A stretch of 64,000 bases of DNA, from assembly GCA_964016885.1 (NCBI GenBank), contig OZ024741.1:335792001-335856000 (forward strand), in the 5' to 3' direction. The notes beneath the pieces were generated by a model that worked only from the letters and a program-made list of their open reading frames with translations, had not been told where the DNA came from and ran no database searches. This document shows positions 1,277-44,822 of this stretch, in pieces (the first letter of the stretch is position 1; the number at the start of each line of letters is the position of its first letter). The position numbers and the translations under genes were made by a program. This DNA comes from Eledone cirrhosa (lineage: Eukaryota).

Positions 1277-1329
1277 CTGCCTGAAGAGGTCACAGCCAAA
1301 GATGGCTGTCACCAAAATATATATAGCAG
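1277..1329 (+). ncRNA. Minimal type-I hammerhead ribozyme motif, degenerate (GAAA->AAAA)
   Basis: ctgc CTGAAGA ggtcacagcc-aaagat-ggctgtcacc AAAA tatata TA gcag; stems I, II and III all present. Confidence 0.7.
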
Positions 1330-1499
1330 CATATCTATAATTTATAATAAACGAAGCCAAATTTTACATATTTGACTTAATTATTTTACATTACTCCGGA
1401 GTAAACAAACCAGCCTGTGTACTTCGTCGAGTGCTCCAATCTGCATACTGAGGTGTCGGTAAACAACCAACATATACTCAAAATTTATATATATATCTT

Positions 1500-1531
<32 letters not shown>

Positions 1532-1540
1532 AATTAAGCA

Positions 1541-4140
1541 TGTTTTGCAGCATGAGGACCAAAGGCATGATCTGTTCAGGATTGCAAAGCAGTGTGTCAG
1601 TTGAAATTGTGATGTTGGTGGGGAGAAATGTGTCCAGCATGATAATGGCAAACTTGCCCACACCTATGCTGAAAGAAAGCAGCTGGGAAGTGCCTTTATG
1701 AAAGATTACTGAATGAGGAGAATGTATGGGACGAAAATAGTTTGCTCCATGACAACCCAACAGAGGGACCAGCAGTAGTATAGTAAGTAAGGCAATCAAG
1801 AATATGAAGTCAGGCAGGGCAGCTGGACCTTCAAGTATAGGTGCTAAGGTGCTGAAAGCATCAGGAATGGTGGGCCACACCATAGTCTTCTGTATTATAA
1901 ACCAAGTTATAGAACATGGTGTCACACCCAATGACTGGTGTAGCAGCATCATTGTCAACTGCTACAAGGGCAAAGGTGACGCTCTAGACAGAGAAAACTA
2001 TAGACGCATTAAGATGGTTGATCATGTTATGAAGGTCACAGAAAGAGTCATTGCACATCTGATTATGAATCAAGTTAACCTAGATGAGATGCAGTTTGGA
2101 TTTGTGTCAGGTAAAAGTACCACAGATGTCCTCTTCCTTGTTGGGCAACTGCAGAAGTACTAAAGGTAAACGCCTCTATTTGGCTTTTGTGGACCTGGAG
2201 AATGCTTTTGACAGAGACTCCTATTCCATTATCTGGTGGGCTCTTAGAAAACTAGGAGTAGATGAGTCGCTTGTGAGGGCACCACAAGCCATATGTAGAG
2301 GAACAGTCAGCAAGGTCAGAATTAACAATGACTATAATAAAGAATTTAAGGAGCAGGTTGGTATCTGTTATGGCTGAGTTCTAGCCCTCTCCTGTTTATT
2401 ATCATCCTGCAGGCTATAATGGAGGAGTTTAAGACTGACTGTCCATGGGAACTCCTGCAGAATTAGTGAAAAAATTCTAAATCTTCAAGCATGGTCTCGA
2501 ATCAAAAGGTCTTAAAGTTATCTTGTCAAAAAGTAAAGTCCTAGTATGTGGAAAAGATAACAGAGCCCAGATTCCTTCATGGAAATGGTCATGCTCAGTG
2601 TGCAGAAACGGTGTAGGTAGAAATTCCTTCCTATGTCCCAAATGCAAACTATGGTTACATAAAAGATGTAGTGGGATCACAGACAGCTATCAAAGAACAT
2701 AGGTTTTACATGTGGCTGATTCACATGTAAAAGCTCATGGATACAAGCTCCTTCAAATGCTCAGAGGGTTCTGAAGAAGTAGAAGATAGTTTCTGTTACC
2801 TGAGTGACCAAATTGTCGGTGGAGGAGGGTGTTCTGAAAGCACCGTAGCCAGAGTAAGAATGGATTGGAGAAAGTTCAGGGAGTTACTACCATTCCTAAC
2901 TACAAAAGGTTTTCCCCTCAAAATGAAGGGCAGATTGTATGATCCATGTATATGAACAGCAATGTTGCATGTTATTGAAACCTGGGCACTGTGTGCAGAG
3001 GACCTGCAAAAATTGGAAAGAAATGAAGCTTCCATGCTGTAATACTAATGTACATATGTAATACTAATGTACATGAGCTGCAAAACACAAATGAACTGAA
3101 AGAGAAATTGTGTATAAGAGGGATCAGATGCAGTGTGAAGGAGAGCAGATTGCAATGGTATGGATATGTGATGTGTATGAAGGATGACAGCTGTATAAAA
3201 AGGTGCAGGGCATTCAAAGTCGATGGAAGCTATGAAGTAGACCTAGGAAGACTTGGAATGAAGTGATAAAAGCTTATCTTGCACAATTGCACCTCTCAAA
3301 GACGATGACATAGGATCGAAATCTCTGGCGTTATGCAGTAATACACAAGAACCACCTTACCTTATGCAGAGGCTGAGGCACACATCTAGTGTGCACCACT
3401 TTTCCTTCTATCACCCCGCCCATACACCTCCCACACCGTAACATCCCATCCACATCCTAACACCCCACACCTATATCTACCCCCTCAATCCACACTATAA
3501 AGGAGTCATCTAGTTTCCATGACTATGAGGGCCTAGTCCCCACTGTAAAGTGGTCATGTAGGTGTCAACAAAAAGTATCCAGTCAACACAATAAAATGGT
3601 CAAGTAGGTCATCATCATCACCGTTTTACGTCCGTTCTTCCACGCTAGCATGGGTTAGATGATAATTGAAACCCAGACCAGGATCTTCACCGTCTCTAAC
3701 ACCTACCACATCAAGATTTAAAAAATAAATGTCCAGTCAACACAATAATTGTTTCTACTTTTGGCACAAGGCCAGCAATTATCCCAGTACATTACTGGTA
3801 CTTTATTTTATCGACCCCGTAAGGATGAAAGGCAAAGTTAACCTCGGCAGGAATTGAACTCAGATCGTAAAGGGACGTAACTATGCTGGAAAGCATGTCC
3901 GACCCTCTACCGATACTGCCAATTCACCCAACACAATAATGTGGTCATGTAGGTGTCAAGATAAAAAAACATCCAGTACTCACTGTAAATGTAGTTGCTG
4001 TTAGGAAGGCCATCCAACCATAGAAAGCAAGCCAAAATCAGTTTTTTGTGAGCAAAACGTGGTCATCCGACCTGGCTTGTCTCACAACAGGACAGCGTGT
4101 CTAATCTATGTTAGTGTGGAAAATGGATATAAAATGATAA
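1541..4140 (+). mobile_element. Decayed, 5'-truncated RTE-clade LINE
   Basis: Frameshifted ORF pieces 1804-3266 homologous to the RTE RT at 58065-59981, followed by a 3' UTR; interrupted by a reverse RTE tail (3610-3660) and a SINE. Confidence 0.9.
3745..3929 (-). mobile_element. tRNA-derived SINE with Meta-like central domain
   Basis: Minus strand reads GGTGAATTGGCAGTATCGGTAGAG...GAGTTCAATTCC...GCCTTTCATCCTTACGGGGTCGATAAAATAAAGTACCAG; TSD-like caacacaataat on both sides. Confidence 0.85.
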
Positions 4141-4315
4141 TTATTATTATATATAATTAATACTTATCATAACACACAGCTTTGTGTTGGAACTACTAGC
4201 ATGTTATCATTGCTGTTACAATCTACCTTCATTCCTTTCTATCCTCCCATCTTACTCTTTCTCCCTGTTCTGATATCTCCCTAAACTTCTACCGTTCTCC
4301 CTCTCTCAGTCTTTC

Positions 4316-4392
4316 TGTACTATATATGCACCTTTGATGAGTTGTAGTGCAACTGAGCACTGTACACAATAATTTTTATTATTATATTATAT
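4316..4392 (+). mobile_element. 3'-terminal fragment of the CR1-type LINE
   Basis: Matches 28172-28240 (cacctttgatgagttgtagtgca..tgagcactgtacacaataat) plus (ATT)n tail. Confidence 0.85.
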
Positions 4393-4784
4393 ATATTATG
4401 CCTCCTTCACATGTACTCATTTTCAGAGAAAAGTCTTCAGTGTTAGTATCCTGCACTTTTTCTACCTGTTGCTCTGTTGTTTTGGCCATAAGACTCTTTT
4501 TGCAGTTTTATTTTTAATGTTAAGTTTTGTTGTCATGTTTAGTTTATTTCGTTGTCAGTTGAAAGATATTTTGCTTGTTCACTGACATCCTGTTCTGTTC
4601 CTCTGTTTAATGTCTGTCCATCTACTGTGTTGTGTTGTGTTATCTTACATCTGTTCCAGATGATTGGGAATCTTTTCCACTGTCTTCTGACATATTTGGA
4701 TGTGACTGTTGTTGATACTATCATTAATTTAGTTGAAATCACAATGTGACTATTCCTGTTATGTATGTGTGGATATGTATGTGT

Positions 4785-6489
4785 CATCATCATCATCATC
4801 ATCATCACCGTTTTACGTCCGTTCTTCCACGCTAGCATGGGTTAGACGGGTTGTCCTGTTGTGGGCAGTGTCTGGTCGGCTGACCATGCCTTGCTCATAC
4901 AGGAACTGATTTGGCTTGATTTCTACAGCTGGATGCCCTTCCTAACACCAACCTCATTTACAGTGAGTGCTGGGTGCTTTTTCGTGGCGCCTACACGTCC
5001 ACTTTACAGTGTGGGCTGGGTGCTTTTTTGCCGTGGCACCTCCACGACCACCTTGCGGTGGGGGGGGGGGGGGGGGCATATTGTTTATATGCTTCAGCAT
5101 GTACCCATGGGAGGTCGGGTACCCTGTATTACTGCGTGACGCCAGAAGTCACGGTCGTGTGTCATTGACTTTGTGAGGTGTAGTTGGGTAAGGTCGGCTT
5201 TTATCACCTCATCCCAAGTCATCTTGGGTCTCCCCACTCCGCGGTTTCCATCAACTTCTAGTGCTCTGCACCTTTTTATGCAGCTGTCATCCTTCATACG
5301 CATCACATGTCCATACCAGCGTAACCGCCTCTCCTGCACGCAGCATTTGATTCCTCTTATGCTCAGTCTCTCTCTCAATTCATTTATGCTTTGTCGTTCA
5401 CGTATATTACTGTTACACATCCATCGGAGCATGCAGGCTTCGTTTCTCTCTAATCTACGTAAGTCTTCCACCTTCAGCGCCCAGGTCTCACTACCATGCA
5501 ACATCGCTGTTCGGATACACGCATCATACAGTCTGCCTTTCATTCTGAGGGAGAAGCCTTTTGCAGCTAGCAGTGGTAGTAGTTCCCTAAACTTCTTCCA
5601 TCCCGTTCTTACCCTAGTTATTGTACTTTCTGAGCACCCACCTCCGTTGCTAATTCGGTCACCTAGGTAGCAGAAGCTGTCTACTGTTTCTACAGGGCCC
5701 TCCCAGAGATTGGTGGTACTTGTTTCCTGTGGCTGTTTGCTTGCTGTTTCAGCACAGCTGCTGCATGTGAATCCTACATTCTTAATTAAGCTTCCTGAGA
5801 TCCCGCTACATCTCTTGTGTACCCATTGTTTGCATTTGGGGCAAAGAATGGAGTTCCTACCTACACCTTTCCTACATACTGAGCAAGGCCATTTCCCTGA
5901 GGGGATCTGGGTTCTGTTTTCTCGTCTACTTATAAAGACCTTAGTCTTTGTCATGTTGACTTTGAGGCCCTTTCTCTCTAGTCCCTGCTTCCAGGTTTGG
6001 AATTTATTCTCTAGTTCTACCATAGATTCAGCTATGAGTGCGAGGTCATCAGCATACAGGAGTTCCCATGGGCATCCGGTCTTAAACTCCTCCGTTATTG
6101 CCTGCAGGACTATGATGAACAGGAGAGGGCTAAGAACAGAGCCCTGGTGGACCCCAACCTGTACGCTAAATTCCTCGCTATACTCATTGCCAATCCTAAC
6201 TTTGCTGACTGCTCCCCTATACATGGCTTGTACCGCTTTCACAAGCCATTCATCTACTCCTAGTTTTCTAAGAGCCCACCAGATTACTGCACGTGGAACT
6301 CTGTCAAAGGCTTTCTCAAGGTCGACAAATGCCAAGTAGAGTGGCTTACTTTTAGCTAGGTACTTTTCCTGTAATTGCCTCACAAGGAAGAGCGCATCAG
6401 TGGTGCCTTTCCCTGGTACAAACCCAAATTGCATCTCGTCTATATTCACCCGGTCCCTAATCAGCTGTGCTATAACTCTTTCTGTTACT
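4785..6489 (-). mobile_element. RTE-clade LINE subfamily A, 5'-truncated, (GAT)n tail
   Basis: Intact RT ORF, 3' UTR with ~39-bp repeats, ends in GGACGTAAAACGGT(GAT)n. Confidence 0.95.
5094..6449 (-). CDS. RTE reverse transcriptase (partial ORF) with internal PHD-type finger
   Basis: QFGF, FVDLEKAFDRV, GVHQGSVLSP, YADD, FCYLG and RLRWYGHVMR motifs; CSVC..CPKC..WVHKRC..FTCSSC between YADD and FCYLG. Confidence 0.92.
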   Translation of the reverse strand: MNIDEMQFGFVPGKGTTDALFLVRQLQEKYLAKSKPLYLAFVDLEKAFDRVPRAVIWWALRKLGVDEWLVKAVQAMYRGAVSKVRIGNEYSEEFSVQVGVHQGSVLSPLLFIIVLQAITEEFKTGCPWELLYADDLALIAESMVELENKFQTWKQGLERKGLKVNMTKTKVFISRRENRTQIPSGKWPCSVCRKGVGRNSILCPKCKQWVHKRCSGISGSLIKNVGFTCSSCAETASKQPQETSTTNLWEGPVETVDSFCYLGDRISNGGGCSESTITRVRTGWKKFRELLPLLAAKGFSLRMKGRLYDACIRTAMLHGSETWALKVEDLRRLERNEACMLRWMCNSNIRERQSINELRERLSIRGIKCCVQERRLRWYGHVMRMKDDSCIKRCRALEVDGNRGVGRPKMTWDEVIKADLTQLHLTKSMTHDRDFWRHAVIQGTRPPMGTC

Positions 6490-6558
6490 TTCTGTTACTT
6501 TCGTGTGTGTGTGTATATATATATACATATGTATATATACACACACACATACATATAT

Positions 6559-6731
6559 GACTATAAATAAACAAGTGCTGCTAGTGCTGTGAAATCTTGC
6601 ATGCATTAGTTTCAACTCTCCTTAATAATAGCTTCATTATTTCTTTCAAGGAACTTTGCTGAAAAATAAACCTCATTTGGTCATTCCATGAGTAGCTTGA
6701 GCAGCCAATGAACTTTTTAGCCGACCCTCAT
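6559..6731 (-). mobile_element. Mariner-type MITE fragment
   Basis: Reverse match to 19617-19815. Confidence 0.6.
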
Positions 6732-6734
6732 ATA

Positions 6735-9435
6735 TCATCATCATCATCATCGTTTAACATCCATCTTCCACGGGAGTTGTCCCACTTGAGGCAAGGTTGG
6801 TCGGGTGACCATGTCTCGCTCATACAGGACTATCTGGCAGGTTTTCTACGGCTCGATGGCCTTCCTAACACCAACCACATTTACAGTGTGGAACTGGGAA
6901 CTTTTTACCGTGTTACCTACACGGCCACATTACAGTGTGGACTGTGTGTTTTTTTGTCGTGACACCTACACGATCTCATTTATTTTGGACTGGATGTTGT
7001 GGTACCAACATAACTTTACAGAGAAAGGGTGGTGTTGGTGGCAGTGGGGTAGGGTGGAGTAGGGGTAGTGGGATGGGGTATATATTTGGTTAAGAAATGC
7101 CTATTGACTGTAGGTTTTGCTTTGTACATAGGCAAGATGGTTCTTCTGTATTACTGCATAGCGCCAAAGATCTCGGTCCAGTGACATTGTCTTAGAGAAG
7201 TGCAAGTGTGTAAGGTCAGAATTTATCAGATCGTCAAGGTTTTTTCTGGGTCTACCTACTCCGTAACTACCATCAATTTTGATAGTCCTGCACTTTTTTA
7301 TGCAGCTGTCGTCTTTCATGCGCATCACGTGACCATACCAAAATAATCTTCTCTCAAGTAAACAGCATCTGATCCCTCTTATTCCTAATTTCTCAATTAG
7401 TTCATTTATGCTTTGTTGTTCACGTATATTACTATTACACATCCAACGGAGCATGCATGCTCCGTTCCTTTCCTGTCTGCGCAAGTCCTCTTCATATAAT
7501 GCCCATGTCTCACTGCCATGTAACATTGCTGTTTGTATACAGGCATCATACAATCTGCCTTTCATTTTTAGAGAGAAACCTTTTGTGGCCAACAGTGGTA
7601 TAAGCTCTCTGAACTTTTTCCATCCCGTTCTGACTCTGGCTACTGTACTTTCAGAACACCTTCCACCACTGCTGATTTCGTCACCCAGCTAACGGAAAAT
7701 GTCTACTATTTCTATAGAACCATCTGGGCAATAGAAGGAGCTAGTATCCTGTGGACACTTGCTACTTATTGCACCTGAGCATTGGCCACATATAAAGTCT
7801 ACGTTCTTAGATAGTTTACCTGTGATCTCACTACATCTTTTATATACCCATGCTTTGCATTTGGGACATAAAATGGAATTTCTGCCTACTCCTTTCCTAC
7901 ACACTGAGCATGGCCATTTCCCTGATGGCACCTGTGCCCTATTTTCCTTTCTACAAACTAGAACTTTAGTCTTAGACAAGTTAACTTTAAGGCCTTTTGA
8001 TTCTAGGCCATGCTTCCATGTTTGGAATTTCTTCTCTAGTTCAGCCATTGATTCAGCTATGAGCGTTAGATCATCTGCGTATAGGAGTTCCCATGGGCAG
8101 CCGATCTTGAACTCCTCTGTTATAGCCTGAAGGGCAATAATCAATAGGAGGGGGCTAAGGATAGAGCCTTGATGAACGCCTACGTTTACACTAAATTCTT
8201 CACAATATTCATTGTTAATTCTAACCTTATTGACTGGTTCATTATACATAGCTTGTATAGCTCTCACAAGCCATTCATCTACACCTAGTTTTCTAAGAGC
8301 CCACCAGATAGTGGAGCGGGGAACTCTGTCAAAGGCTTTCTCCAGGTCTACAAAAGCTAAGTAGAGGGGTTTACTTTTAGCTAGGTACTTCTCTTGCAGT
8401 TGTCGTACAAGGAAAAGAACGTCTGTGGTACTTTTACCTGACACAAACCCAGATCAATTCACTCTCTGATTAGTTGCGCTATAACTCTTTCTGTGACCTT
8501 CATGACCTGGTCAACTAACTTAATGCCTCTATAGTTTCCCCTATCTAGAGCAACCCCTTTACCCTTGTAGCAGTTAATGATGATGATGCTACGCCAGTCT
8601 TTCGGTATGACCTCATTCTGTATTACTTGGTTAACTATACGGGTGACCATAGTGTGTCCCACCATACCAGATGCCTTCAACATCTCAGCAACTATCTCCG
8701 AAGGCCCAGCTGCCTTGCCTGTCTTCATATCTTTGATTGCCTTACTTATTATACTACCTTTAACTTGCACCGCTGTTCCTTCTATTGGATCGATTTGGGG
8801 CAGACTATCTTTTTCCCATTTATTTTCTTCATTTAATAGTCTCTCGTAGTGACACTTCCAGGCTATCTTCTTATCAGTATCAGTGAGCGCAAGTACACCG
8901 TTATCATTACAGACACACTTCTCCCCGACAATATCACGGCTTTCCTTCACACATTGTCTAGCAATCCTGAACACCTCACGTTTTTGGTCCTCACGTTGTA
9001 GAACATGCTTGAACTTTCTATCCTCTGCTACCCTTTTTGCAAGATACACTTGTCTCCTAGCTTCTCTCCTGGCCACTTGATAGTCTTCTCTACTTCCCCC
9101 ATCCTGCAATACTTTCCAAGCCTGCTTTTTGGCCTTGATTGTCTCTTCCACCTTACTGTTCCACCACCAAGTTACTCTCCTCTTGCCAATAGGTCTGCTC
9201 CAGCCACAGATTTCATCCGTTGCTTTCAGCAGGTTCACTTTCAAGAATTGCCACTGTTCCTCTATATCGCACGTCTCTAATTGCTCTTCCATATTGTCAA
9301 AGGCATCAAGTAATAAGCTTTTAAATTTGTCACTGGCTATGGGGTCCTTCAACTTCTATATTCTTCTCCTGAAGGTAGGCCTCCTCTGTCGTCGAGTATG
9401 TCTATTCCTGACTAGGAGGTCACTAACTACTAGGC

Positions 9436-9437
<2 letters not shown>
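6735..9437 (-). mobile_element. RTE-clade LINE subfamily B, 5'-truncated, disrupted
   Basis: ORF pieces 8459-9352, 7689-8444 and 7101-7592 are collinear RTE ORF segments; (GAT)n tail at 6735. Confidence 0.95.
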
Positions 9438-12048: not shown

Positions 12049-12082
<34 letters not shown>

Positions 12083-12302
12083 ATTAAGTTAAAAATGTAC
12101 ATCCACATATGTATACTGAAATACTAGTATGCATATGAATACACACACGTATACATATGTAGATGTACCGATTTTTTCACTGGTCACTTTACTGTGAGTG
12201 TCCAGCTATTCTGTATGTAAACATACAGACAAACCGGTTTTTAGAGTCATACTGGTTTTTGAGGAAACACCTTTCCTCTATTCTCCAGAAAGCCAGACAA
12301 GG

Positions 12303-12347
12303 AATATTGAACTAGTTTCGATGTTGTTACATCTCATCAGCAATATT
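12303..12347 (-). ncRNA. Intact minimal type-I hammerhead ribozyme
   Basis: Minus strand: aatattg CTGATGA gatgt-aaca-acatc GAAA ctag TT caatatt; perfect 7-bp stem I and 5-bp stem II, palindromic stem III (ACTAGT), GUU cleavage triplet. Confidence 0.88.
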
Positions 12348-12549
12348 TACCTATCTTCCGGCCTTTCTAGAGAATCGTAAAAGCACATATCGTTATATGC
12401 TTTTTCTATGAAAATTAGTAGTGGGCAGACTAATTTGCATAGAGCGTGAGTAAGTACGTACCGGTTCAACGGAGACGATAAAAACAAATAACGAAACGAA
12501 ATTAAATTTCGTTTCGTTTGTAACTCACTTTTGTATGACTTACAAACGA

Positions 12550-13243
12550 AACGAATATAGTGAAGAGTTTAGCGTAAAAGTTGGCGTCCATCAGGGCTCT
12601 GTTCTCAGCCCCCTACTATTTATTATTGCCCTTCAGGCTATAACAGAGGAGTTCAAGACCGGCTGCCCATGGGAACTCCTATACGCAGACGACCTGACAC
12701 TCATAGCGGAATCAATGGCCGAGCTAGAGAAGAAATTCCAAACATGGAAGCACGGCCTAGAATCAAAAGGCCTTAAAATTAACCTGGCTAAGACTAAAGT
12801 TCTAGTTTGTAGGAAAGAAAATAAGGCGGCGGTCCCTTCTGGGAAATGGTCGTGCTCGGTGTGTAGGAAAGGCGTAGGTAGAAACTCCATTTTATGTCCT
12901 AAATGCAAAGTATGGGTGCATAAAAGATGTAGTGGGATCACAGGTAAGCTAACTAAGAACATAGATTTTACATGTGGCAGGTACTCTGGTGCAATAAGTA
13001 GCAGCAAGTGCCCACAAAATTCTAGCTCTTTCAATTGCGCAGAGGTTCTATAGAAATAGTGGACAGTTTCCGTTACCTGGGTGATAAAATCAGCAGTGGG
13101 GGAGGGTGCTCTGAAAGTACAGTAGCTAGAGTCAGAACTGGTTGGAAAAAGTTCAGAGAGCTTATACCACTATTAGCTGCTAAAGGGTTCTCCCTAAAAG
13201 TGGAACACGGACGTTAAACGTTGATGATGATGATGATGATGAT
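12550..13243 (+). mobile_element. RTE subfamily B, 5'-truncated and internally deleted
   Basis: RT from NEYSEEF to KGFSLK, then jumps directly to the terminal tggaacacggacgttaaacgtt(gat)n at 13201. Confidence 0.9.
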
Positions 13244-15329: not shown

Positions 15330-15513
15330 AAGGGCGGTGAATTGGCAGTATCAGTAGAGGGTCGGACATGCTTTCCAGCATAGTTACGTCCCTTTACAAT
15401 CTGAGTTCAAATCCAGCTGATGTTATCTTTGTCTTTCATCATTATGGGGTCGATAAAATAAAGTACCAGTAATACACTGGGATAATTGCTGGCCTTGTGC
15501 CAAAGGTAGAAAC
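15330..15513 (+). mobile_element. Meta-like SINE with target-site duplication
   Basis: Flanked by attattatactgaatc on both sides. Confidence 0.9.
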
Positions 15514-15639
15514 AATTATTATACTGAATCTCCATCGTAACTACAAACTACGAATGTTGAGAGCTTTCTCTTGCTTGCTCCTTTTTTAACCAAAACAATC
15601 TCTTCCAAACCTATATATATACATATATATATAAGAAGA

Positions 15640-15868
15640 GAGACAAGATCCCAGACCTCATTTGCTTAACGAGTGAGGTGGAGCTCGTCAAATTAGACCG
15701 AGGAAACAATGTTTCCATTGGTCTTTCCAATTGCTAATACTATCTGTCGATTGCAACTCCAGGTAGAAGTGTCCTGCTCAAGGACATAACGCATCATCTG
15801 GTCCAGAAATCAAACTCACAACCACTCGATTGTGAATCCAATTCTTTAACCACTCTGCCACACGCCTT
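15640..15868 (-). mobile_element. CORE-like tRNA SINE (related copies 16466-16714, 23558-23785)
   Basis: Minus strand: ggcgtgtggcagagtggttaaag...gagtttgatttc...ccttgagcaggacac. Confidence 0.7.
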
Positions 15869-16023
15869 AATATATATATATATCATCTTCTACAGTCAGC
15901 TCTACTCCTACCCCCAACTGCACTACCATCCTGTCGAGTCTATCTTAATTCCCCTTCTTCAATTATCCCCCCGCCTGCCTGAGACTACTGTTATTCATAC
16001 TGTGTCTGCTATTGAATTTTAGT

Positions 16024-16073
16024 TCTTGTCTGATGACCCTATGATAAACAAGTGAAATTCCAGAATAACAAGA
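16024..16073 (+). ncRNA. Hammerhead ribozyme motif with decayed stem II
   Basis: tcttgt CTGATGA ccctatgataaacaagt GAAA ttc-ca-gaa TA acaaga; stems I and III pair, stem II poorly. Confidence 0.65.
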
Positions 16074-16764
16074 CTCACTTTTCAGCCTTTATAAAATGAA
16101 TATTTAAACCCTACTTCTGTATTGAGTACTTGTTTCTCTCAGCTGTCAACTACATACAGATATATGCATATATATTGACTTTCACACAGTTTTGTTCAAC
16201 AATATTTTCTCAGAAAGTATTGGTAGACCCATGGCTACAGTCTAAAATAGTTGCTCTTGATGCCACACAATTGGACTGATCTGGAAAGTTCCTTGGTTGC
16301 AACACAAACTTGATTATACAGCCATGTCTGCATATTCTTTATATCTTTTACTTATTTATTTTCCTCTTTTCTAAAATTTATATTAACAAAACTATCTCCT
16401 GTTGTTTATTGTATTAGAGCAATTTAAAACACTATTGCTTATTTCCATGAAATATGACAGTTGATTGACAAGATCCCAGAACTCACTCGCTTAACAAGTG
16501 GGGTGGAGCTCATCAAATTGGACTGAGGAAACAATGTTTCTATTGGTCTTTTCACCTGTTAATACTATCTACCGGTTACAAATCCAGGCAGAAGGAGTAA
16601 TGTGAAATAAAGTGTCATGATGAAGGACATAACACATCACCCAGTCTGGGAATCGAAATCACAACCTCACAATTTTGAATCCAATTCTCTAACCACTCAG
16701 TCATGTGTCTTCACAAATATCTGACTTCAATGTTTACTTAAGTTATTGTACATCAACGTATGCT

Positions 16765-19815: not shown

Positions 19816-20123
19816 TATATATATATATATATAATATAAAGTATATATCTTTTGTTTATTACTATTATTATTATTATTACGGGGTCGATAAAATAAAGTA
19901 CCAGTAATGCACTGGGTATTTGCTGGCCTTGTGCCTAAATTAGAAACAATTATTATTATTATATACATATATAGCTTTGGCCTAGCTGTATTCATATATG
20001 TTTCATATATGTAAAGATATATGGTGTGTTTAATAAATAAACATTTTGAAAACCCAGCTATGAATATTGAAAGCCTGATGGGCAGCACTATCTAGTGGAT
20101 TCCAGCAGAAGCAGCTAGGGACA

Positions 20124-20168
20124 ACTGTATAATGCACATTTCAAACTAATGGCTCTCATCAGAACAGT
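20124..20168 (-). ncRNA. Degenerate hammerhead ribozyme motif
   Basis: Minus strand: actgtt CTGATGA gagc-catta-gttt GAAA tgtgca TT atacagt; one bulge in stem I. Confidence 0.55.
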
Positions 20169-20202
20169 GCTTATATATGTATTTATAAATTTTATATGGA
20201 AT

Positions 20203-23384: not shown

Positions 23385-23925
23385 GTAATACACTGGGATA
23401 ATTGCTGGCCTTGTGCCAAAGGTAGAAACAAATATTATACTGAATCTCCATCGTAACTACAAACTACGAATGTTGAGAGCTTTCTCTTGCTTGCTCCTTT
23501 TTTAACCAAAACAATCTCTTCCAAACCTATATATATACATATATATATAAGAAGAGAGACAAGATCCCAGACCTCATTTGCTTAACGAGTGAGGTGGAGC
23601 TCGTCAAATTAGACCGAGGAAACAATGTTTCCATTGGTCTTTCCAATTGCTAATACTATCTGTCGATTGCAACTCCAGGTAGAAGTGTCCTGCTCAAGGA
23701 CATAACGCATCATCTGGTCCAGAAATCAAACTCACAACCACTCGATTGTGAATCCAATTCTTTAACCACTCTGCCACACGCCTTAATATATATATATATC
23801 ATCTTCTACAGTCAGCTCTACTCCTACCCCCAACTGCACTACCATCCTGTCGAGTCTATCTTAATTCCCCTTCTTCAATTATCCCCCCGCCTGCCTGAGA
23901 CTACTGTTATTCATACTGTGTCTGC
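23385..23925 (+). repeat. 541-bp direct duplicate of 15469-16009
   Basis: Near-identical base by base; I found one substitution. Confidence 0.92.
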
Positions 23926-24432: not shown

Positions 24433-25040
24433 GTTATAATGTTCTGTTGTGTGTGTTAATGTACTGACAAAGCATTATGTTGTAATAATATACACCATAT
24501 ACCATATTCACTGTAGGAAATAGCATTTCCAACATTTCCAACAGTTTCCTGTCGCAAGTTTGGTGTATCAGTGCATCAGAGTACATCAATAAATAATAAT
24601 TAAATGAAGACTAGGAGTTGATACCAAAACAATCTCTTTCCTCAACTTCATTAAATAAACATCCTGTAACTGGAGGAAATATCACAAATCAATTATTATT
24701 TTAATCAATATGTATAGTTGTACTGGCTGGTTATCATTAAACACTGTATTTAACTTATTTTAAATCTATTTTTAATTAAAAACAAACTTGTGTATATATA
24801 TTGGGTTTATATGTGTGTATCTATATATATATGTACTATACATTGTTTGTGCGTATGTCTGTGTATATATATATATAATTTATTAATATATATATATATA
24901 TAAGAAAAAGGGATATGCAATTTGTTGGTAATTCAACAAATATAAATGTTTATAACTGATTCAGATCACTTGACAGGTTTTCTGGAGTATAATATTCAAT
25001 GGTATTAAATAAATGGAAACTATATTTATAAAACCATATT

Positions 25041-25101
25041 TATTCTATTATATATATTTCAAGGATACCAAAACTTTGGTATGCTTTCATCAGATAAAAT
25101 A
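25041..25101 (-). ncRNA. Intact minimal type-I hammerhead ribozyme (family H-A)
   Basis: Minus strand: tattttat CTGATGA aagcatacca-aagttt-tggtatcctt GAAA tatata TA atagaata. Confidence 0.85.
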
Positions 25102-25178
25102 CGAAGTGTGTTTTATAAATGTTGACATAACCAAGAAAAATATACCTTAACGGTTCAAGTTTTCCTTGGATATATATA

Positions 25179-28100
25179 CTATGTAAAAACTGCTACAACT
25201 CTGGGAAACTAAACCAGAACAACCTGCCACCCTCTACACACCATCATAAACTGCGAGCAGGGTACAAATTGTTGTCCTTAAATGCTCGCAGTTTATGCAA
25301 CAAGATACATCTGTTCGAATCCTACGTCAGAAGCATCGACCCTGACTTCATCACAGTCACGGAAACATGGGCACATTCCTTACTCTGTGATGGGGTTTTC
25401 ACCATTACTGGGTACAACCTTTTCCGCAAGGACCGCATTAACCGCCGTGGTGGTGGTGTGATGGTCTACGTTCGTTCAAACTTTTCGGTAATTCCTTGCG
25501 TTGATTTGAACGAATCACAGGAAGAAGTTTTTTTCTGTGACATACGTATGACCATGTCAACACTTCTGCTTGGTGTTGTTTATCGCCCCCCAAACTACCA
25601 TCAGGACACACAGCTTTGCGATATCCTCAGAGTTGCTGCCAAGAAAACAGCCACTTATGTGTTTATTGCAGGTGACTTCAATCATCCTGAGATCGATTGG
25701 GAAACCTTTCGTTGGCCACAGGGTGCAAACGATTTCCTTGAACTAGTGCTGGACTCAAACTGGTCACAAGTAGTCACCTCTCCAACAAGAGGTGACAACA
25801 CTTTGGACCTGATCTTCACCACTACTCCTGAAGTGGTTATCAGTTGTACTACTGAGGAACCTCTAGGCGACTCTGATCATGCTATGATCATTGCCAATCT
25901 GGCACTTGAGGGCAGCAACAAAAACCAGAGCCATCTCCAATCTGCTTGCTTTGATTGGAAGAGGGCAGATTGGAACTTGTACTGCACTGAGCTACAGCGC
26001 CCAAACTGGCATGAGATGTATAACTCTGGAGATGTGAACTCTATACTCCAGAGCATCCTGGACTCAATATGGATAGCGTGTGCAGCATCAGTGCGACGGA
26101 AGCGGAAAAATAACCACCCCAAAAGTGCAATCTGGGAAACTTCAGCAGTCCGACTTGCCAGGAAAGAACGTCGGAACGCTGAACGGGAATATAAACTGCA
26201 TAGATCAGATGCCAACAGAAAAAAGCGGAATAAATCTTCTAACCATCTCAAGCAAGTGACAAAGAAGGCAGTGCTTGAATTTGAACAGTGCATCGCAACC
26301 AATCCCGACAGTAAGGTGTTCTGGAAATATGTTCATTCAAAGCAGAGACCTCACTCTCCAGTTGGTCCTCTTCGCAATCCCCATACAAGCCAGATCACTG
26401 ACGATCCCAAGGAATGCGCAGAACTCATTGCTGAGTGCTATGCAAGTATTTTTACTGTTGAAAACCAGAATGTACCATCTCCACCATCTCTAACATCAAA
26501 TTCCATAACAACTATGGAATTTACACCTGCAATGTTGCGACGTCACCTTTTGCGGGGATTTCCTTTTGCGCCAGCTTTCTTTTTTCTTTCAATACTGTCT
26601 CAGCAATGGTGCTACTCCAGAGCAGTGGAAAACTGCCAGTGTCATTCCCCTGTTCAAAAAGGGCAACCGCATGTCACCTGTCAACTATCGTCCAGTCAGT
26701 CTTACTAGCTGTATGGCCAAACTGATGGAATCCTGTGTCAGAGAAACACTTTGGAACTTCTGGAGCTCTCACAGCCTCATCCGGCCCTCACAGTTTGGAT
26801 TTATCCCTAACTCCAGCTGCTGTGATCAGCTTATCGAGTTCCTTGAGGACATCACCCGGATCACTGACAGCGGCTCATGGGTGGATGTTGTTTACCTTGA
26901 CTTTGCTAAGGCTTTTAATTCTGTGCCACACAAAAGACTTATGGCAAAACTCTCTGCAATGGGTGTGAGGGATGATCTTTTCGACTGGCTGAAATCCTTC
27001 ATTCTCAGCCGAAAGGAAGTAGTCACAGTTCTAGGACAGCATTCTTCACCATATGAGATGTCATCTGGTGTACCACAGGGATCTGTTCTTGGTCCTCTTT
27101 TGTTTGTGGCATATATTAATGACATAGATGCCAACTTACAGAATGCCACGGTACTAAAATATGCAGATGACATCAAGCTGTACCTTGAAATCAAAAGGAC
27201 TGATCCTGAAATTTACAACTCTTTCCTACAATCAGACCTGGACACAATGCAGCAATGGATCACAGACTGGCAACTGAAGCTGGCTGTGGACAAGTGTACC
27301 ACCATGCATTTTGGAAGGAAAAATCCAGCGTCCACATACTCCCTCCACAACACTGACATCAAAAAGTCCTCTTGTGAACGTGACCTGGGCATTACTGTCA
27401 GCAACGATTTGCGTTGGACAAAGCATGTCTCTAAGATTGTCAAGAAGGCCGAGGGTGTCTTGGCATCACTCAGCAAGACCTTTGTTAGCCGCTCTCCAGC
27501 CATCTATTTAAAACTGTATACAGCTATGGTGCGACCACACTTGGAATTCGCATCATCAGTCTGGAACCCCTATCTTGCTCGGAACATTGACCTCCTGGAA
27601 ACTGTTCAGAGACGTGCAACCAAGCGCATACCCTCCATCAGACACCTACCATACTCTGAACGCCTTGCTTCCCTGGGCATGAATTCATTGAAGCTCCGAC
27701 GTCTGGCAGTGGACTTGGTGAATACCCACAAAGTTTTTAACCATCTCGCCAACTGCAACCCTGAGCGCCTCTTTGATCTCCATGTATCTAACACACGTGG
27801 ACATGCCTACAAGATAAGAAAACAGCACAGCTCCCATGACTTTCGCAGACATTTTTTCACGCTCAGAGTTGCTGAAACATGGAACAAACTGCCTGCGTCA
27901 ATTGTTAGCTGCCGAGACACTGCATCCTTTAAGACACTCATGCTTCCCGAAATACGCCAAAACTACACCTGATGTGCCCCTTCCATACACATGCACACAT
28001 GTGTGCACTGTTCATTTTACTGATGTTTGTGCATTGCCCTATGTACTGTACATGCACTTTTTTGATGGGTTGTGGTGCACCTGGGCACTGTGCACAATAT

Positions 28101-28245: not shown

Positions 28246-28723
28246 TATAATAGAATAAATATCGTTTTATAAAGATAGTTTCCATTTATTTAATATCGTT
28301 GTATATATATATATATGTGTGTGTATATATATAATTGTATTAATGTATATATATATATATATATATATATATTTCTTCTCACTTTCTGTTGCTTAAACCA
28401 TAATGTTTGTTCACCCTAGCGTCCCCTTTATTTACGTGCCCCAACAACTTTTTTTAGCCGTTGTTCACACCAACCTGAGGTATATGGCCCTTAATGCGAT
28501 GAAATGCCTAGGACGGTTGGAAGGCCACTAATGAAGGACTTACTTTTTCATATATATATAAGGTTAAACAAAGTTCGATGAATAAATCAAAGAATTAGTT
28601 TTACAATAGATTGGAAGCACTCAACAGTTATGGTTTTTCGGAGTTATTAATAATCTTTCAAGATATGGTAGTCATGACTGGATCTTAACCATCTACTATG
28701 TCAGGGTATGTGATGCATCATCT

Positions 28724-28790
28724 TATTTTATCTGATGAGGACGTACTGTTGAAGTTAACTCAGTACCTCTGAAATATGTATAATAAAATA
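28724..28790 (+). ncRNA. Intact minimal type-I hammerhead ribozyme (H-A-related)
   Basis: tattttat CTGATGA ggacgtactg-ttgaagttaact-cagtacctct GAAA tatgta TA ataaaata; perfect 8-bp stem I. Confidence 0.82.
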
Positions 28791-28848
28791 TACTTGATCA
28801 CAATGAAGTTCTATTTTTGTTAATATCTTGAAAGAATATATATATATA

Positions 28849-38679: not shown

Positions 38680-39287
38680 ACAAGACAAGGGCCAGTAACA
38701 TAAGACAAGGGTCAGTAACATAAGACAAGGGCCAGTAACATAAGTCAAGGGTCAATAACATAAGACAGGGGTCAATAACATAAGACAAGGGCCAGTAACA
38801 TAAGACAAGGGTCAATAACATAAGACAAAGACCAATAGCATAAGACAAGGGTCAGTAACATAAGACAAGAGCCAGTAGCATAAGCCAAGGTCCAGTAACA
38901 TAAGACAAGGGCCAATAACATAAGACAAGGGCCAATAACATAAGACAAGGGCCAATAACATAAGACAAGGGCCAATAACATAAGACAAGGGCCAGTAAGA
39001 AGACAAAGGTTAGTAACATAAGACAAGAGCCAATAACATAAGACAAGGGCCAGTAACATAAGACAAGGGCCAATAACATAAGACAAAGACCAATAACATA
39101 AGACAAGGGCCAGTAACATAAGAGAAAGACCAGTAACATAAGAAAAAGACCAATAACATAAGACAAAGACCAGTAACATAAGACAAAGGTCAATAACCTA
39201 AGACAAAGACCAGTAACATAAGACAAAGACCAATAACATAAGACAAAGACCAATAACATAAGACAAAGACCAGTAACATAAGACAAT
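38680..39287. repeat. 20-bp minisatellite (cataagacaagggccagtaa)n
   Basis: About 30 tandem units with variant drift along the array. Confidence 0.95.
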
Positions 39288-39807: not shown

Positions 39808-39837
<30 letters not shown>

Positions 39838-39839
<2 letters not shown>

Positions 39840-40108
39840 CATCATCACCGTTTAACGTCCATTTTTTCACGCTAGCATGGGTTAGACGACTTGTTCGGTT
39901 GTGAGAAATGCCAGCTCAGAACTAAGTCTTGCTTATACAGAACTGATTTGGGCTTGGTTTCTACAGCTGGATGATCTTCCTAATGCTAACCACATTTACA
40001 GTGAGTACTGGATGCTTTTTGTTTCACCTATATGACTTCTTTACAGTGTGGGCTGGGGGGCTTCATTAGATGTATGCTTCAGCCTGTGCCCATGGAAAGG
40101 TGGGTCTT
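39838..40108 (-). mobile_element. RTE 3'-UTR fragment
   Basis: Homologous to 4785-5125. Confidence 0.8.
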
Positions 40109-40281
40109 ATATATATATATATATATATATGCACATATAAACAATAAGTTATATGGTTTGTTGATTATCATTCAACAAAGTTAATTTTATAACAGATTTG
40201 AAGTACTCTACAGTATTTATCTGGAGTATTATTAATATTAACAATATTAATAAATGGAAAATATCTTTATAATACCATATT

Positions 40282-40341
40282 TATTTTATTATACGTATTT
40301 CAAGGACACAAAATTTTAGTGTGCTTCCATCAGATAAAATA
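40282..40341 (-). ncRNA. Hammerhead ribozyme motif (family H-A; CTGATGA->CTGATGG)
   Basis: Minus strand: tattttat CTGATGG aagcacac..gtgtcctt GAAA tacgta TA ataaaata. Confidence 0.75.
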
Positions 40342-40659
40342 TAATATTTGGTGTTAAGATATTGACATACCTTAGCGTAGACTTAATAGTATAAGTTCGC
40401 TAACGGCAGTGAGGTAAACATTCAAAATCACAAGGGATATAAGTTAACAAGGATACATTAAAACAGAAAAGGACCGTTATTATAAATGCTAGATACATTT
40501 TGAAAAATAGTGTATTTATATTGGTCGTGTGGCTGTCGTTAGAGGGTGAAATATTAATGCAGAATTATGCATATATATATATATATATACATATACGCAC
40601 ACACTTATATACATACACACACATATATATATACACACATATATATATATATATATTGA

Positions 40660-41994
40660 TATATACATGTATGAGAATTATGTAACTATAGATATATATT
40701 TTAACATATATTTTAAGAATGTGAATCTAATTATATTGGTTATATAAAAAATGTATTGTAGTGTAGTAAATTATAAGCTACTAATGTATATGGTTGAGTA
40801 AATATATAACGTATTTGTTATTTTAACTATGTAAACAAACTTTATAGAGATTATGAAAAGTGTCACAACTAATTTGGTCTTTAAAAGACAATAACACTAA
40901 TTATTCAATCTCTTGGAATAAAATCAGGACGCTCCCGCATACCAAAATTCTTCAATTTCCAAAATTTGTCAAATTTGTACTGAAGAAATCTTTCATATAA
41001 TTACTAATCCTGGTAATAATATTATTAACAAAAAGAAAGAGATATTTAATTCTTGTTTGCATAAATTTTCCAATACTTTTCATAATCTTAACTATAATTG
41101 TTTCTACTTTTGGCACAATGCCAGCAAATCCAGTACATTACTGGTACTTTATTTTATCGACCCCGTAAGGATGAAAGGCAAAGTTAACCTCGGCGGGATT
41201 TGAACTCAGAATGGCAAGGGCCGTATGAATATTACATAATTTATGTGCTATATTTTACAGCTTATTTAAAGATCTTTAAAATTCACTTCTTTAAAATGTT
41301 CAAATGTCACACTTCCGGTTAGCGGCTGTTATATTATAAAACATATTAAAATATCGCATATATTTCCGTCGCTAATTTTCTCCTAATGCAGTTTATATAT
41401 AATATCGTCTTTTTTTTAAATGTATCATGGATTACATTACTGATTACAGAAGACAGTGTGGCATAGACTTCGTTCAATTTCTGTGTATATTGTCAATTGC
41501 GATTTTATTTGATGTATCATATCTACATGTATATATATTTGTGCATAATATCAATATACACACCTCACAAGCTAACAGAAAACCACCCGTGGGGTGGTTT
41601 TCCTACTAGTCTCTATATAGGCTCTTTAACCATATAACCATTTATATGGTGCTCTAAAATCTTATCTAAGTTGTTTATTTACAATATAAATAATAATAAT
41701 AATAATTATAGAACCTAATAGATCGAAGTATATCTTATTCAATGTTTATCGTAAACATACCTTGAATACAATACTTGTAATCGTATATAATTTAGAGTTG
41801 TTTCCCCATTGTTTGTTTACATAGTTAAAATAACAAATACGTTATATATTTATTCACATGATTATTATAATTAACCATATACATTAGTAGCTTATAATTT
41901 ACTACACTACAATACATTTTTATACAACCAATATAATTCACATTCTTAAAATATATATCTATAGTTACATGATTCTCCTATGCTCATGTATATA
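40660..41994. repeat. Inner ~180-bp inverted repeat pair (40660-40841 / 41811-41994)
   Basis: gtaactatagatatatatttt..aactatgtaaacaaac versus its reverse complement. Confidence 0.85.
41086..41609 (+). mobile_element. Non-autonomous Helitron containing a SINE (41096-41225)
   Basis: A|TCTTAACTATAAT start, 3' hairpin gaaaaccaccc-gtg-gggtggttttc, CTAG|T end; homologous to 56710-57586. Confidence 0.8.
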
Positions 41995-42680
41995 CTAGCT
42001 AAACTATCCGGTTCAAGTAGCTTTCGATGTAGCTCATTAAACTAAACAAAGTAAATTTGAATACATAGAAGAAAAACGTACTTTATGTAAACATGAAAAC
42101 CTTAGGCACTATTCCAGCGAAATAATTAATATGTGAGCTCGGTGTCTTTTTTGACAACAGTAAAAGCGCATCATGAAATAGAGAAGTGAAGTGAATAATA
42201 GACACTATTATGTACAAAGCATAATATTGTAAAAGTTATGACATCACTTAATGTATGAACATCAAGCTTGAAACGATAAATTATACAATGTCAAATCTAT
42301 AACTTAACTTAGTAATCTGTTAGAAATTGCTGGTTGTGAAATATACAAAATGATATTGTTAGTCTCAAGGAAGCATACCTTTTGTTTCAAGTACAATTAG
42401 TAAATTAAAATCCGAATGAGCCGAATTACGAAAGATAACTCTTGTCTTACTTAATCACGAAAATTCACATAAATAACCGAAACTTTTTTAATGTCTCCAA
42501 AGACCCCAATATCGATCTTTGAAAGCCTTTGTAGATCATGTACAGGTTTTGTGCAAGGAGAAGCTCTGTAAAAAAAATTCAAAGAAATCGCATGAATGGT
42601 TTAGAATATATGAACCCTCATTAAAAATTGTCCACGCACACACATACAGAAAACTTCGTCTTTATATATATATATACAGA
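41995..42680 (-). mobile_element. Non-autonomous Helitron (second family)
   Basis: Minus strand begins A|TCTGTATATATATATATAAAGACGAAG and ends CTAG|T; 3' hairpin not clearly preserved. Confidence 0.6.
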
Positions 42681-42695
42681 TATATATATATATAT

Positions 42696-43030
42696 CGTCA
42701 TCATCATTTTTATGTCCGCTTTTCCCTGCTTGCAAGGGTGGGACGGGAACTGATTCTGGCTTGATTTCTACAGCTGGATGCCCTTCTTAACACCAACCTC
42801 ATTGAGAGTGAGTGCTGGGTGCTTTTTTTGCCGTGGCACCTCCACGACTACTTTGCAGTGGAATAATATGGACCCCAGTCCCTATCATCTCATTTCTACA
42901 GCTGAGTAAACTGGAGCAATGTGAAATAAAGTGTCTTGCTCAAGGAAACAACACATCACCCGGTCTGAGAATTCAACTTACAACCTTTCGATTGCAAGTC
43001 CAATGCTCTAACGACTAAGCCATGTGCCTT
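42696..43030 (-). mobile_element. CORE-type SINE with chimeric RTE tail
   Basis: Reverse copy of 50334-50708. Confidence 0.85.
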
Positions 43031-43171
43031 CATGGCTTAGTGGTTAGAGCATTGGCCTTGCAATCCATGTGTGTATATATATGTGTGTGTGTATGATTAT
43101 ATATATATAGATAGATATATGCATAATTCTACACTAATATTTCACCCTCTAACGATAGCCACACGACCAAT

Positions 43172-44391
43172 ATCATCATCATCATCGTTTAACGTCCATG
43201 TTCCACGCTTGCATCGGTTTGGATGGGAGTTTTCCCACTTGAGGCAAGAGTGGTTGTCTTGCTCGCATAGGACTGTCTGGCAGGTTTTCTACAGCTGGAT
43301 GCCCTTCCTAACACCAACCACATTTACAATGTGGGACTGGGAAGTTTTTACCGTGTTGCCTACACGGCCACATTACAGCGTGGACTGTGTGTTTTTTTGT
43401 CGTGACACCTATACGATCTCATTTGTTTCGGCCTGGATGTTGTGGCACCAACGTAACTTTACATTGAAAGGGGCGGTGTGGATGGGGTGGGGGTGGTGTG
43501 ACGGGGGCGTATTTTGTTAGAGATGCCTCCTGACTGTAGTAGGTTTACTTTGTATTTAGGCAAGGCGGGTCTTCTCTATTACTGAGTACCGCCAAAGATC
43601 TCGGTCCAGTGACATTGTCTTGGAGAGGTGTAAGTGTGTGAGGTCAGAATTTATCAGGTCGTCCCAGGTTTTTCTGGGTCTGCCTACTCCGTGGCTACCG
43701 TCTATCTTTATTGCCCTGCACTTTTTTATACAGCTGTCGTCTTTCATGCGCATCACGTGACCATACCAACGTAGCCTTCTCTCGAGTAAACAACATCTGA
43801 TCCCTCTTATTTCTAATTTTTCCCTTAGTTCGTTTATGCTTTGCCGTTCACGTATATTACTATTACACATCCAGCGGAGCATGCAAGCTTTGTTCCTCTC
43901 TAGTCTGCATATATCCTCTGCACACAATGCCCAGGTCTCACTGCCATGCAACATTGCTGTTCGTATGCAGGCATCATACAACCTGCCTTTCATTTTTAGG
44001 GAGAACCCTTTAGCGGCTAATAGTGGTATAAGCTCTCTGAACTTTTTCCATCCAGTTCTGACTCTAGCTACTGTACTTTCAGAGCACCCTCCACCACTGC
44101 TGATTTTGTCACCCAGGTAACGGAAGCTGTCCACTATTTCTATAGAACCCTCTGCGCAATTGAAAGAGCTAGTATTTTATGGGCACTTGTTGCTACTTAT
44201 TGCACCAGAGCACCGGCCACATGTGAAATCTATATTGTTAATTAGCTTACCAGTGATCCCACTACATCTTTTATACACCCATACTTTGCATTTGGGACAT
44301 AAAATGGAGTTTCTACCTATGCCTTTCCTACACACTGAGCATGGCCATTTCCCGGAAGGGACCGGCGCCTTATTTTCTTTCCTACAAACTA
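43172..44391 (-). mobile_element. RTE subfamily B, 5'-truncated
   Basis: ORF 43556-44134 plus PHD region to 44390; (GAT)n tail. Confidence 0.93.
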
Positions 44392-44563
44392 TAAATACGC
44401 TATTTTAAAAAGTTTATCTAGTGTCTATAATAACGGTCCTTTTCTGTTTTAATGTATCCCTGTTAACTTATATCGCCTGTGATTTTGAATTTATACCTCA
44501 CTGCCGTTAGCGAGCTTATACTATTAAATCTACGCTAAGGTATGTCAATATCTTAACACCAAA

Positions 44564-44619
44564 TATTTTGATGAAAGCACACTAAAATTGTGTGTCCTTG
44601 AAATACGTATACTAAAATA
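44564..44619 (+). ncRNA. Degenerate hammerhead (family H-A), inverted partner of 40282
   Basis: tattt-TGATGA aagcacac..gtgtcctt GAAA tacgta TA ctaaaata; a small deletion removes C3. Confidence 0.65.
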
Positions 44620-44662
44620 AATATGCTATTATAATGATATTTTCCATTTATTAATATTGTTA

Positions 44663-44693
<31 letters not shown>

Positions 44694-44784
44694 TATATGT
44701 AAAAAGTAAACAGAAATAACAAAACAAACAACACAGTACAATGAAGAAATATATTAGTTTAACACTTCAAATAATAGGAAAAGA

Positions 44785-44822
44785 ATCTTGATGTTTCAGA
44801 CATTAATTCTTCATCAGAAGAT
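44785..44822 (-). ncRNA. Minimal hammerhead ribozyme motif (very short stem III)
   Basis: Minus strand: atctt CTGATGA aga-attaatg-tct GAAA ca TC aagat. Confidence 0.7.

Follow-up and report, generated by a model that had tools for sequence, protein, structure and literature searches.

The question raised by this locus, positions 335,792,001 to 335,856,000 of contig OZ024741.1 from Eledone cirrhosa (64,000 nucleotides, hereafter the window), is to what kind of element nine scattered hammerhead-ribozyme motifs belong and how such elements enter the genome. A reading of the letters alone had ascribed all nine to short non-autonomous units akin to Penelope-like elements (PLEs) and retrozymes. Our analysis makes it very probable that five sites are truncated ends of coding PLEs of the Hydra clade, that two belong to protein-less tandem retrozymes for which a PLE enzyme is the likely copying agent in trans, and that two are not readily placed, all of these repeats ending at (TA)n. 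Site numbers are positions in the window (37% GC, rich in TA microsatellites and in fragments of LINEs, long interspersed nuclear elements), and genome-wide counts refer to the 3.0-Gb assembly of this genome.

Hammerhead motifs at nine sites

Direct inspection found hammerhead-like sequence at each of the nine coordinates; the motif was complete in just four of them. These four (12303, 25041, 28724 and 44785, with the core C at 12340, 25093, 28732 and 44817, respectively) passed a strict descriptor requiring the exact core and stems I to III, while the background, 60 dinucleotide shuffles done in 1-kb blocks, yielded no full motif at all. A relaxed descriptor permitting one core change was passed by seven sites, against a shuffle mean of 0.48 and a maximum of 2. 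The core changes were GAAA to AAAA at 1277, CTGATGG at 40282, and loss of C3 together with a stem I deletion at 44564. Both descriptors were failed by 16024, where stem II is unpaired, and by 20124, where the cleavage site and the stem I base have decayed; the full fold is present in better-preserved copies of these two families. Loop III, which the sequence-only reading had described as palindromic in several copies, is so at 1277, 12303, 25041, 40282 and 44564, and at 28724 only if G-U pairs are counted. Site 44785 is the sole minimal-type motif, and a TA/CA run lies at or close to the 3' end of every site. The proposed comparison with Rfam recovered one site in the whole window, 12303 (HH9, E 1.4e-5, 36.5 bits, short of a gathering score of 52), and left the other eight unmatched; matches to mir-297 and similar families were TA/CA microsatellites.

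Genome-wide, the core combined with a six-base loop III was matched 77,916 times, compared to 68 times for the reversed control; this pattern pools several families, and the number is a lower bound for one architecture. A further hammerhead pattern gave 19,928 matches and none for its control. Covariation, the other check suggested beforehand, was sought in 80 distinct stem II interiors picked via flanking anchors alone: 6.4 of the first eight positions pair, compared to 3.2 in 500 shuffles (maximum 3.7), the sequences being related, so that no probability attaches to the difference. Compensatory exchanges were of the G-C/A-T and T-A/C-G kinds. Judged across these copies, the pairing and the exchanges are the mark of selection on structure. 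In all 80 interiors stem II has, as its fourth position, an unpaired pyrimidine pair (mostly C-C) with covarying neighbours; in the window it is seen in the Hydra-type hammerheads at 25067-25086, 28739-28770, 40309-40326 and 1288-1313. This pair possibly makes a tertiary or protein contact.

Coding Penelope-like elements and protein-less retrozymes

The view that the motifs are type-I hammerheads of PLEs and retrozymes, belonging to several families inserted into (TA)n, was borne out. Their non-autonomous nature was upheld for 12303 and 20124, probably for 44785, and contradicted for five sites by the linked frames that had been proposed as a check. Among copies of the PLE families, 5' ends vary and the 3' end is fixed at (TA)n. 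An in-sense endonuclease frame lies ~650-840 bases away in the family of 40282 and 44564 (loci L061, L062 and L023) and is reached after ~1.1-1.2 kb by five longer copies of the 25041 family. Of the long copies sampled, 14/25 in the 1277 family have the end of such a frame at most 1.6 kb upstream, and 9/30 in that of 28724 have it 1.6-1.85 kb upstream; these loci were selected for long matches, and the fractions are not family-wide rates. Because the longer copies continue into an in-sense endonuclease frame, sites 1277, 25041, 28724, 40282 and 44564 are, by alignment, the 3' ends of 5'-truncated Hydra-clade PLEs and not non-autonomous elements. At L061 and L066, a hammerhead followed by a frame had been considered as a tandem junction; a TA run intervenes, pointing to separate insertions, and those downstream frames were therefore not counted as links.

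By the same kind of alignment, 40282 and 44564 belong to a single insertion as its two arms, which are separated by an endonuclease fragment. This fragment, a frameshifted C-terminus at 40861-41092, means that the earlier statement that no GIY-YIG reading frame is visible in the window was not quite right. A 5' inversion reading of it was replaced by the two-arm reading after alignment to longer family copies. Arm B starts within the endonuclease frame and was split into four pieces by three later insertions; the outer ends lie at ~+205 (arm A) and ~+97 (arm B). End positions are two-peaked, near +95-105 and +190-205, in the families of 1277, 25041, 28724 and 40282. The window motifs themselves are mostly dead ends of ordinary PLE insertions.

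A young family related to the window PLEs retains an intact 800-codon frame in 22 of its 30 best-scoring loci, with a mean divergence of 0.7% among intact frames and 16 identical pairs out of 231. This autonomous element is a 3.9-kb unit, arranged in tandem, made up of a single frame for reverse transcriptase (RT) and GIY-YIG endonuclease, a spacer of 1.4 kb and, ~100-190 bases from the 3' ends, a hammerhead of the same architecture as those of the window PLEs. In the 800-residue protein, RT motifs lie at 261, 323 and 357, LIYEC at 678 and TYFGST at 692; the endonuclease is assigned by motif alone. The protein carries the DKG to DKT change (HSDKTNN at 121), a CxCx5C linker (CNCRIKNNC at 659, present also in the families of 1277 and 40282) and, beside the conserved E and N, CxxC (CNLCLNE at 759) and CxH. 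The latter, a CLH near the C-terminus missed by the CxH pattern, was read by eye, as was a single cysteine in the GIY-YIG core; no CCHH motif is present. The N-terminal RWK is RWT in the intact protein and RWR in the L066 family, and 26 homologues include nine with RWK and five with RWR. Copies insert into (TA)n, bear a canonical hammerhead near the 3' end, and occur in tandem and inverted arrangement. The motifs (DKT, CxCx5C, CxxC and CxH) and the (TA)n target appear to fit the Hydra clade of Craig et al. 2021 (PMC8557442). Assignment to the Neptune clade, which needs a CX2-5CxxC linker and CCHH, was rejected. The predicted fold (pLDDT 83.8, a model-confidence score) finds its best PDB matches in telomerase RT (TERT), and the only named homologue comes from Argonauta.

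To judge from their genomic copies, the families of 12303 and 20124 are protein-less tandem retrozymes with units of 466 and 338 bp. The 466-bp unit (period 466-470, 35% GC) is repeated head-to-tail with one type-I hammerhead per unit, as aligned to HH9; its exact core occurs 4,034 times in the genome and the control 0 times, and arrays reach 31 units. The longest stop-free frame spans 60 codons, and the predicted circular fold reaches -156.9 kcal/mol (z -11.8 against 60 shuffles). The unit was also found as contigs in four sequencing runs of unrecorded kind, which is uninformative on expression; none of the runs listed is recorded as RNA. For the 338-bp family, unit end joins unit start in 19/24 loci; copies are 82-91% alike, no long arrays were seen, and unit ends cluster near +170 and +205.

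In the two-armed insertion L156:3273-6431 of the 466-bp family, the cleavage site of all eight hammerheads reads GUC, against GUU in most family members sampled. A sister family, ~70% like the 466-bp unit, is marked by the core CUGACGA, by GUA as its site and by a compensated stem I; it occurs as inverted and tandem pieces (L019:2230-2800, L229:1380-2220, L053, L071, L298 and L305). Fragments of other PLE types, whose RT and endonuclease sequences differ and which are candidate helpers of the retrozyme, lie at L067:252-911, L068:2-670, L156:7315-8331 and L363:2323-3196.

The two remaining sites are less easily placed. The 240-bp family of 44785 has a common 5' start, CCAAAATGGC, in 32/47 copies (44905-44929 of the window, minus strand), and no frame was found upstream in 50 loci and seven extended stretches. 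We take this start to resemble the YY1 site found where L1 begins. The likeliest reading of 44785 is a short non-autonomous PLE derivative; it adjoins the TA/CA run that terminates arm B. At 16024, the pyrimidine-rich upstream part resembles a PLE 3' untranslated region (UTR), and an in-sense RT fragment, with no endonuclease part intervening, lies ~0.9 kb upstream in one of 50 loci (L317/L367), an ambiguous link to a frame. A 541-bp stretch taking in the 5' part of the 16024 unit and stopping ~20 bases before its hammerhead is duplicated at 99.8% identity (15469-16009 and 23385-23925).

Two alternatives to this assignment were weighed. That AT-rich repeat DNA yields the motifs by chance is scarcely credible: it would agree with the failure of five of the nine sites under the strict descriptor and with isolated folding, in which only 1277 (z -3.0) and 12303 (z -4.95) clearly beat their own shuffles and the other seven showed no clear gain, but the shuffles contain no full motif, every site's family runs to hundreds or thousands of candidate copies (184 to 3,640 at first look), and better copies have the whole fold. 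We also consider it very unlikely that every one of the nine is a non-autonomous ribozyme element served by a helper in trans. In each family the majority of copies are indeed short and have no frame within 1.5 kb, and this description is true of 12303 and 20124 and perhaps also of 44785 and 16024. For the other five it is refuted by continuous alignments and counts: longer copies run on, at a distance particular to each family, into an in-sense endonuclease frame. Their 3' ends, too, are fixed where 5' ends vary.

Two-armed insertions and a possible route into the genome

PLE and retrozyme insertions alike often consist of two diverging arms, whose inner (5') ends are scattered and whose outer (3') ends fall on two fixed sites, each arm using one of them. 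For the 466-bp retrozyme we sampled the first 26 insertions listed on contig C1, plus four picked loci. Two diverging arms were present in 17 of the 26, and in all 17 the outer ends, which abut (TA)n, fell at +259-265 in one arm and at +331-333 in its partner, the inner ends being scattered; the remaining nine, with one arm or a short stub, end at either of the two sites. The four picked loci, all two-armed, obeyed the same rule. Units are alike across both arms in L153 (all 14) and L156 (all eight). In the intact PLE family, six of seven two-armed insertions have one end at +98-107 and one at +190-192. A bulged hairpin occurs in the intact tandem element at +106 and +196, 4-6 bases past each end; near +105 it is found in 62 of 98 long-tailed copies, where shuffles lead one to expect 0.5, and it is present at sites 1277 and 40282 of the window.

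The mirror-image arms with two fixed ends suggest that the 466-bp retrozyme borrows a Penelope-type enzyme. Such an enzyme, probably dimeric, would cut both strands in (TA)n, and each DNA end would prime reverse transcription from one or other of two start sites within the RNA. Both complementary DNAs would stop at random and then be joined, most copies retaining just the hammerhead-bearing end. In Hydra elements the start sites would be marked by the bulged hairpin 4-6 bases past each end; the retrozyme would supply two start sites 70-75 bases apart. Since multi-unit arms run through the cleavage site, the template was circular or uncut, and the retrozyme would be copied repeatedly through its own cleavage site, either from a religated circle, which we slightly favour, or from an uncut multimeric transcript, which is nearly as probable. 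A monomer circle or a uniform multimer would fit the identical units across the arms of L153 and L156; a mixed multimer, or else local duplication at a later time, would fit the recurring variants of L158 and L271. As the literature suggests, the hammerhead would cut multimeric transcripts into units, mostly via dimers paired through loop III, and its cleavage would be dispensable for the insertion step itself. Lunse et al. reportedly described dimer cleavage of PLE hammerheads in 2017. In its fullest form, which we put forward tentatively and as somewhat less than an even chance, the proposal is that a dimeric enzyme reads a single RNA from two start signals within it, one arm each; that on a 466-nt circle both enzymes run round the template, so that the mirror-image arrays are footprints of rolling-circle target-primed reverse transcription; and that the twin bulged hairpin is the Hydra start signal.

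Several observations weigh against the PLE-based interpretation as a whole. L286 and L287 share structure and may represent one duplicated event, leaving 16 independent cases. Unit variants recur in the long arrays L158 (units 0 and 4, and 3 and 8) and L271, for which a single monomer circle is insufficient, and units are closer across arms than to the nearest other insertion in just 7/17 insertions. One of the seven two-armed PLE insertions (L295) has two short ends. The tails, 70-75 and ~90 bases, exceed the 30-40 bp in print. The 466-bp unit showed no similarity to PLE UTRs among the loci compared, and the descriptor detected the Hydra hairpin in neither retrozyme. As to the enzyme, Pfam and PDB sequence searches (phmmer and profile) failed to recognise the 800-residue protein, and the Foldseek TM-scores of its TERT matches were low (0.27-0.33). 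Two further searches gave null results. Arm 5' ends were not evidently enriched at the cleavage site (+32), arms being found by their cores, which biases against detection; and among 30 insertions, a small set, there was no excess of A-to-G changes (distinct insertion-fixed sites: A>G 5 and T>C 5 in one subfamily, 2 and 3 in the other).

An improbable alternative is that the arrays grow at the DNA level, a PLE inserting or leaving a monomer that is then amplified locally in tandem and folded back, a scenario discussed in 10.64898/2026.07.22.740005. Local duplication would suit the recurring variants of L158 and L271 and arrays of up to 31 units. However, fold-back would copy the same end, whereas all 17 two-armed insertions have two different fixed outer ends and scattered inner ones; units are alike across both arms in L153 and L156; and the protein-coding PLE shows the same layout. 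Nor does growth of this kind as the main route agree with the short young insertions L156, L272, L274, L275, L286 and L291, whose arms each exceed one unit and whose outer ends differ. It is more doubtful still that a LINE of the RTE or CR1/L2 type moves the retrozymes. LINE RT frames abound in the window, and LINEs are named as possible helpers in PMC7229834, but the retrozyme ends are internal to the tandem unit, at two fixed positions, with no poly(A) or LINE-like 3' tail, and the layout matches that of PLE insertions. Copying by a PLE enzyme remains our preferred reading. The genome entry of animal retrozymes has so far been proposed, not demonstrated; a protein-less retrozyme bearing a PLE integration footprint is structural evidence for the PLE route, and the one-start-site-per-arm rule constrains PLE integration generally.

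Features of the window

The units and motifs of the nine sites are collected in the table below. Among the other repeats, a 19-bp tandem satellite of at least 191 copies occupies 60365-64000 and runs off the end, with a short copy at 57793-57924, and a 20-bp tandem repeat of 30 copies lies at 38682-39286. A LINE whose frames for apurinic endonuclease and RT lie in two pieces (25131-27972) adjoins the 5' end of the 25041 unit. LINE fragments with a PHD-like finger after the RT, which we take to be RTE-like, are found at 5094-6494, 7101-9355, 12454-13053, 43556-44390, 48698-49321 and 58023-59981. Weak tRNA-like matches below threshold, at 50337-50394 and 42965-43022, are probably heads of short interspersed elements.

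Table. Hammerhead-bearing units of the window and their parts, in window coordinates.
Feature	Position	Strand	Remarks
Short inverted stub beside the 1277 unit	1124-1158
3' end of Hydra-clade PLE, long-tail end (by alignment)	1158..1485	+	96.7% to L219; in-sense endonuclease upstream in long copies
Hammerhead with G12 to A	1277-1329		within the 1158..1485 unit; bulged hairpin at +113
Monomer-length copy of the 466-bp tandem retrozyme	12082..12543	-	short-site end (+259) against (TA)n
Intact canonical type-I hammerhead, GUU site	12303-12347	-
Old hammerhead-bearing unit, stem II decayed	15881..16175	+	motif 16024-16073; pyrimidine-rich 5' part
5'-truncated copy of the older 338-bp tandem retrozyme	19969..20172	-	decayed hammerhead 20124-20168
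3' end of Hydra-clade PLE, long-tail end (by alignment)	24899..25171	-	intact hammerhead 25041-25101
3' end of Hydra-clade PLE, short end (by alignment)	28673..28839	+	intact hammerhead 28724-28790
Arm A of two-armed Hydra-clade PLE insertion, long-tail end	40120..40841	-
Arm A hammerhead with A9 to G	40282-40341	-	bulged hairpin at +107
Arm B, piece 1: frameshifted GIY-YIG endonuclease C-terminus (CxxC..E, N..CxH region)	40861..41102	+	92% to L062, L061
Arm B, piece 2: 3' UTR	41607..41994	+
Arm B, piece 3: 3' UTR	43063..43179	+
Arm B, last piece, short end	44390..44666	+	broken hammerhead ~44564-44617; 89.5% to arm A over 286 bases
~240-bp monomeric element	44693..44929	-	minimal hammerhead 44785-44822; fixed 5' start

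Relation to known systems

The closest system to the coding elements is the Hydra clade of PLEs with a C-terminal endonuclease (EN+), including Hydra-1_Obim of Octopus bimaculoides (PMC8557442). As described there, the clade shares with the present family a single RT plus C-terminal GIY-YIG frame, DKT, the CxCx5C linker, CxxC and CxH, (TA)n targets, a canonical hammerhead near the 3' end, tandem and inverted copies, and a tail at one end, the last being a trait of PLE insertions at large in that account. The family found here differs in its unit length (3.9 kb, against generally <3 kb) and in RWT in place of RWK; its hammerhead, with a long stem II, the unpaired fourth-position pyrimidine pair and a six-base palindromic loop III, is unlike that of Hydra-1_Obim given in the supplement. 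It has a tail of ~90 bases, tens of thousands of copies and many intact frames, where PMC8557442 lists one octopus family with 'no pLTR'. Recently active Penelope-like families have been described in Octopus vulgaris (PMC13282606), in a main text silent on ribozymes. The Hydra clade has so far been known from few families, and many intact, 99% identical elements make in vitro tests of mechanism practical.

The solo motifs resemble the hammerheads of PLE pseudo-long terminal repeats (pLTRs) reported by Cervera and de la Pena 2014 (PMC4209133) in their thousands of copies from truncated PLEs, their palindromic helix III, their opposite-strand pairs 100-700 bp apart, and their many families per genome. 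At least 77,916 copies of one architecture were counted here, compared to 4,000 in coelacanth and 9,000 in Xenopus. Dimers are the favoured cleavage form of minimal PLE and retrozyme hammerheads (PMC4209133, PMC7229834); eight of nine predicted Xenopus retrozyme dimers failed to cleave (10.64898/2026.07.22.740005), and the motif alone is therefore no proof of activity.

For the integration step, the nearest parallel is Poseidon_Ac (Frangieh et al. 2024, PMC11167929), a PLE which in vitro has both target strands cut and extended and whose two internal RT start sites bound the genomic tail. An AT-rich target and an uncut RNA substrate are likewise shared; hammerhead cleavage was unneeded for insertion, and a dimer was predicted. 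Poseidon_Ac belongs to another clade, its starts lie within the reading frame rather than, as here, 70-170 bases before the start codon, and a one-site-per-arm rule in genomic copies is not stated for it in the available part of that paper.

The 466-bp element resembles metazoan non-LTR retrozymes (Cervera and de la Pena 2020, PMC7229834; Li, Clavereau and Pollet 2026, 10.64898/2026.07.22.740005) in its tandem non-coding units with one type-I hammerhead each, its low GC, its strongly self-paired predicted circle and its coexistence with PLEs, which both papers propose as likely helpers from co-occurrence and sequence relationship. It differs in its 466-bp unit with a GUU site, its two diverging arms and its two fixed outer ends; for the published retrozymes, expression has been demonstrated. 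We found no paper on cephalopod retrozymes in the literature searched, nor, in the main-text parts covered, the two-armed, two-ended layout for retrozymes. What is found here are new families of known PLE and retrozyme types (PMC4209133, PMC8557442, PMC7229834); what is added to them is a protein-less retrozyme that bears a PLE footprint, together with a Hydra family that is both young and intact.

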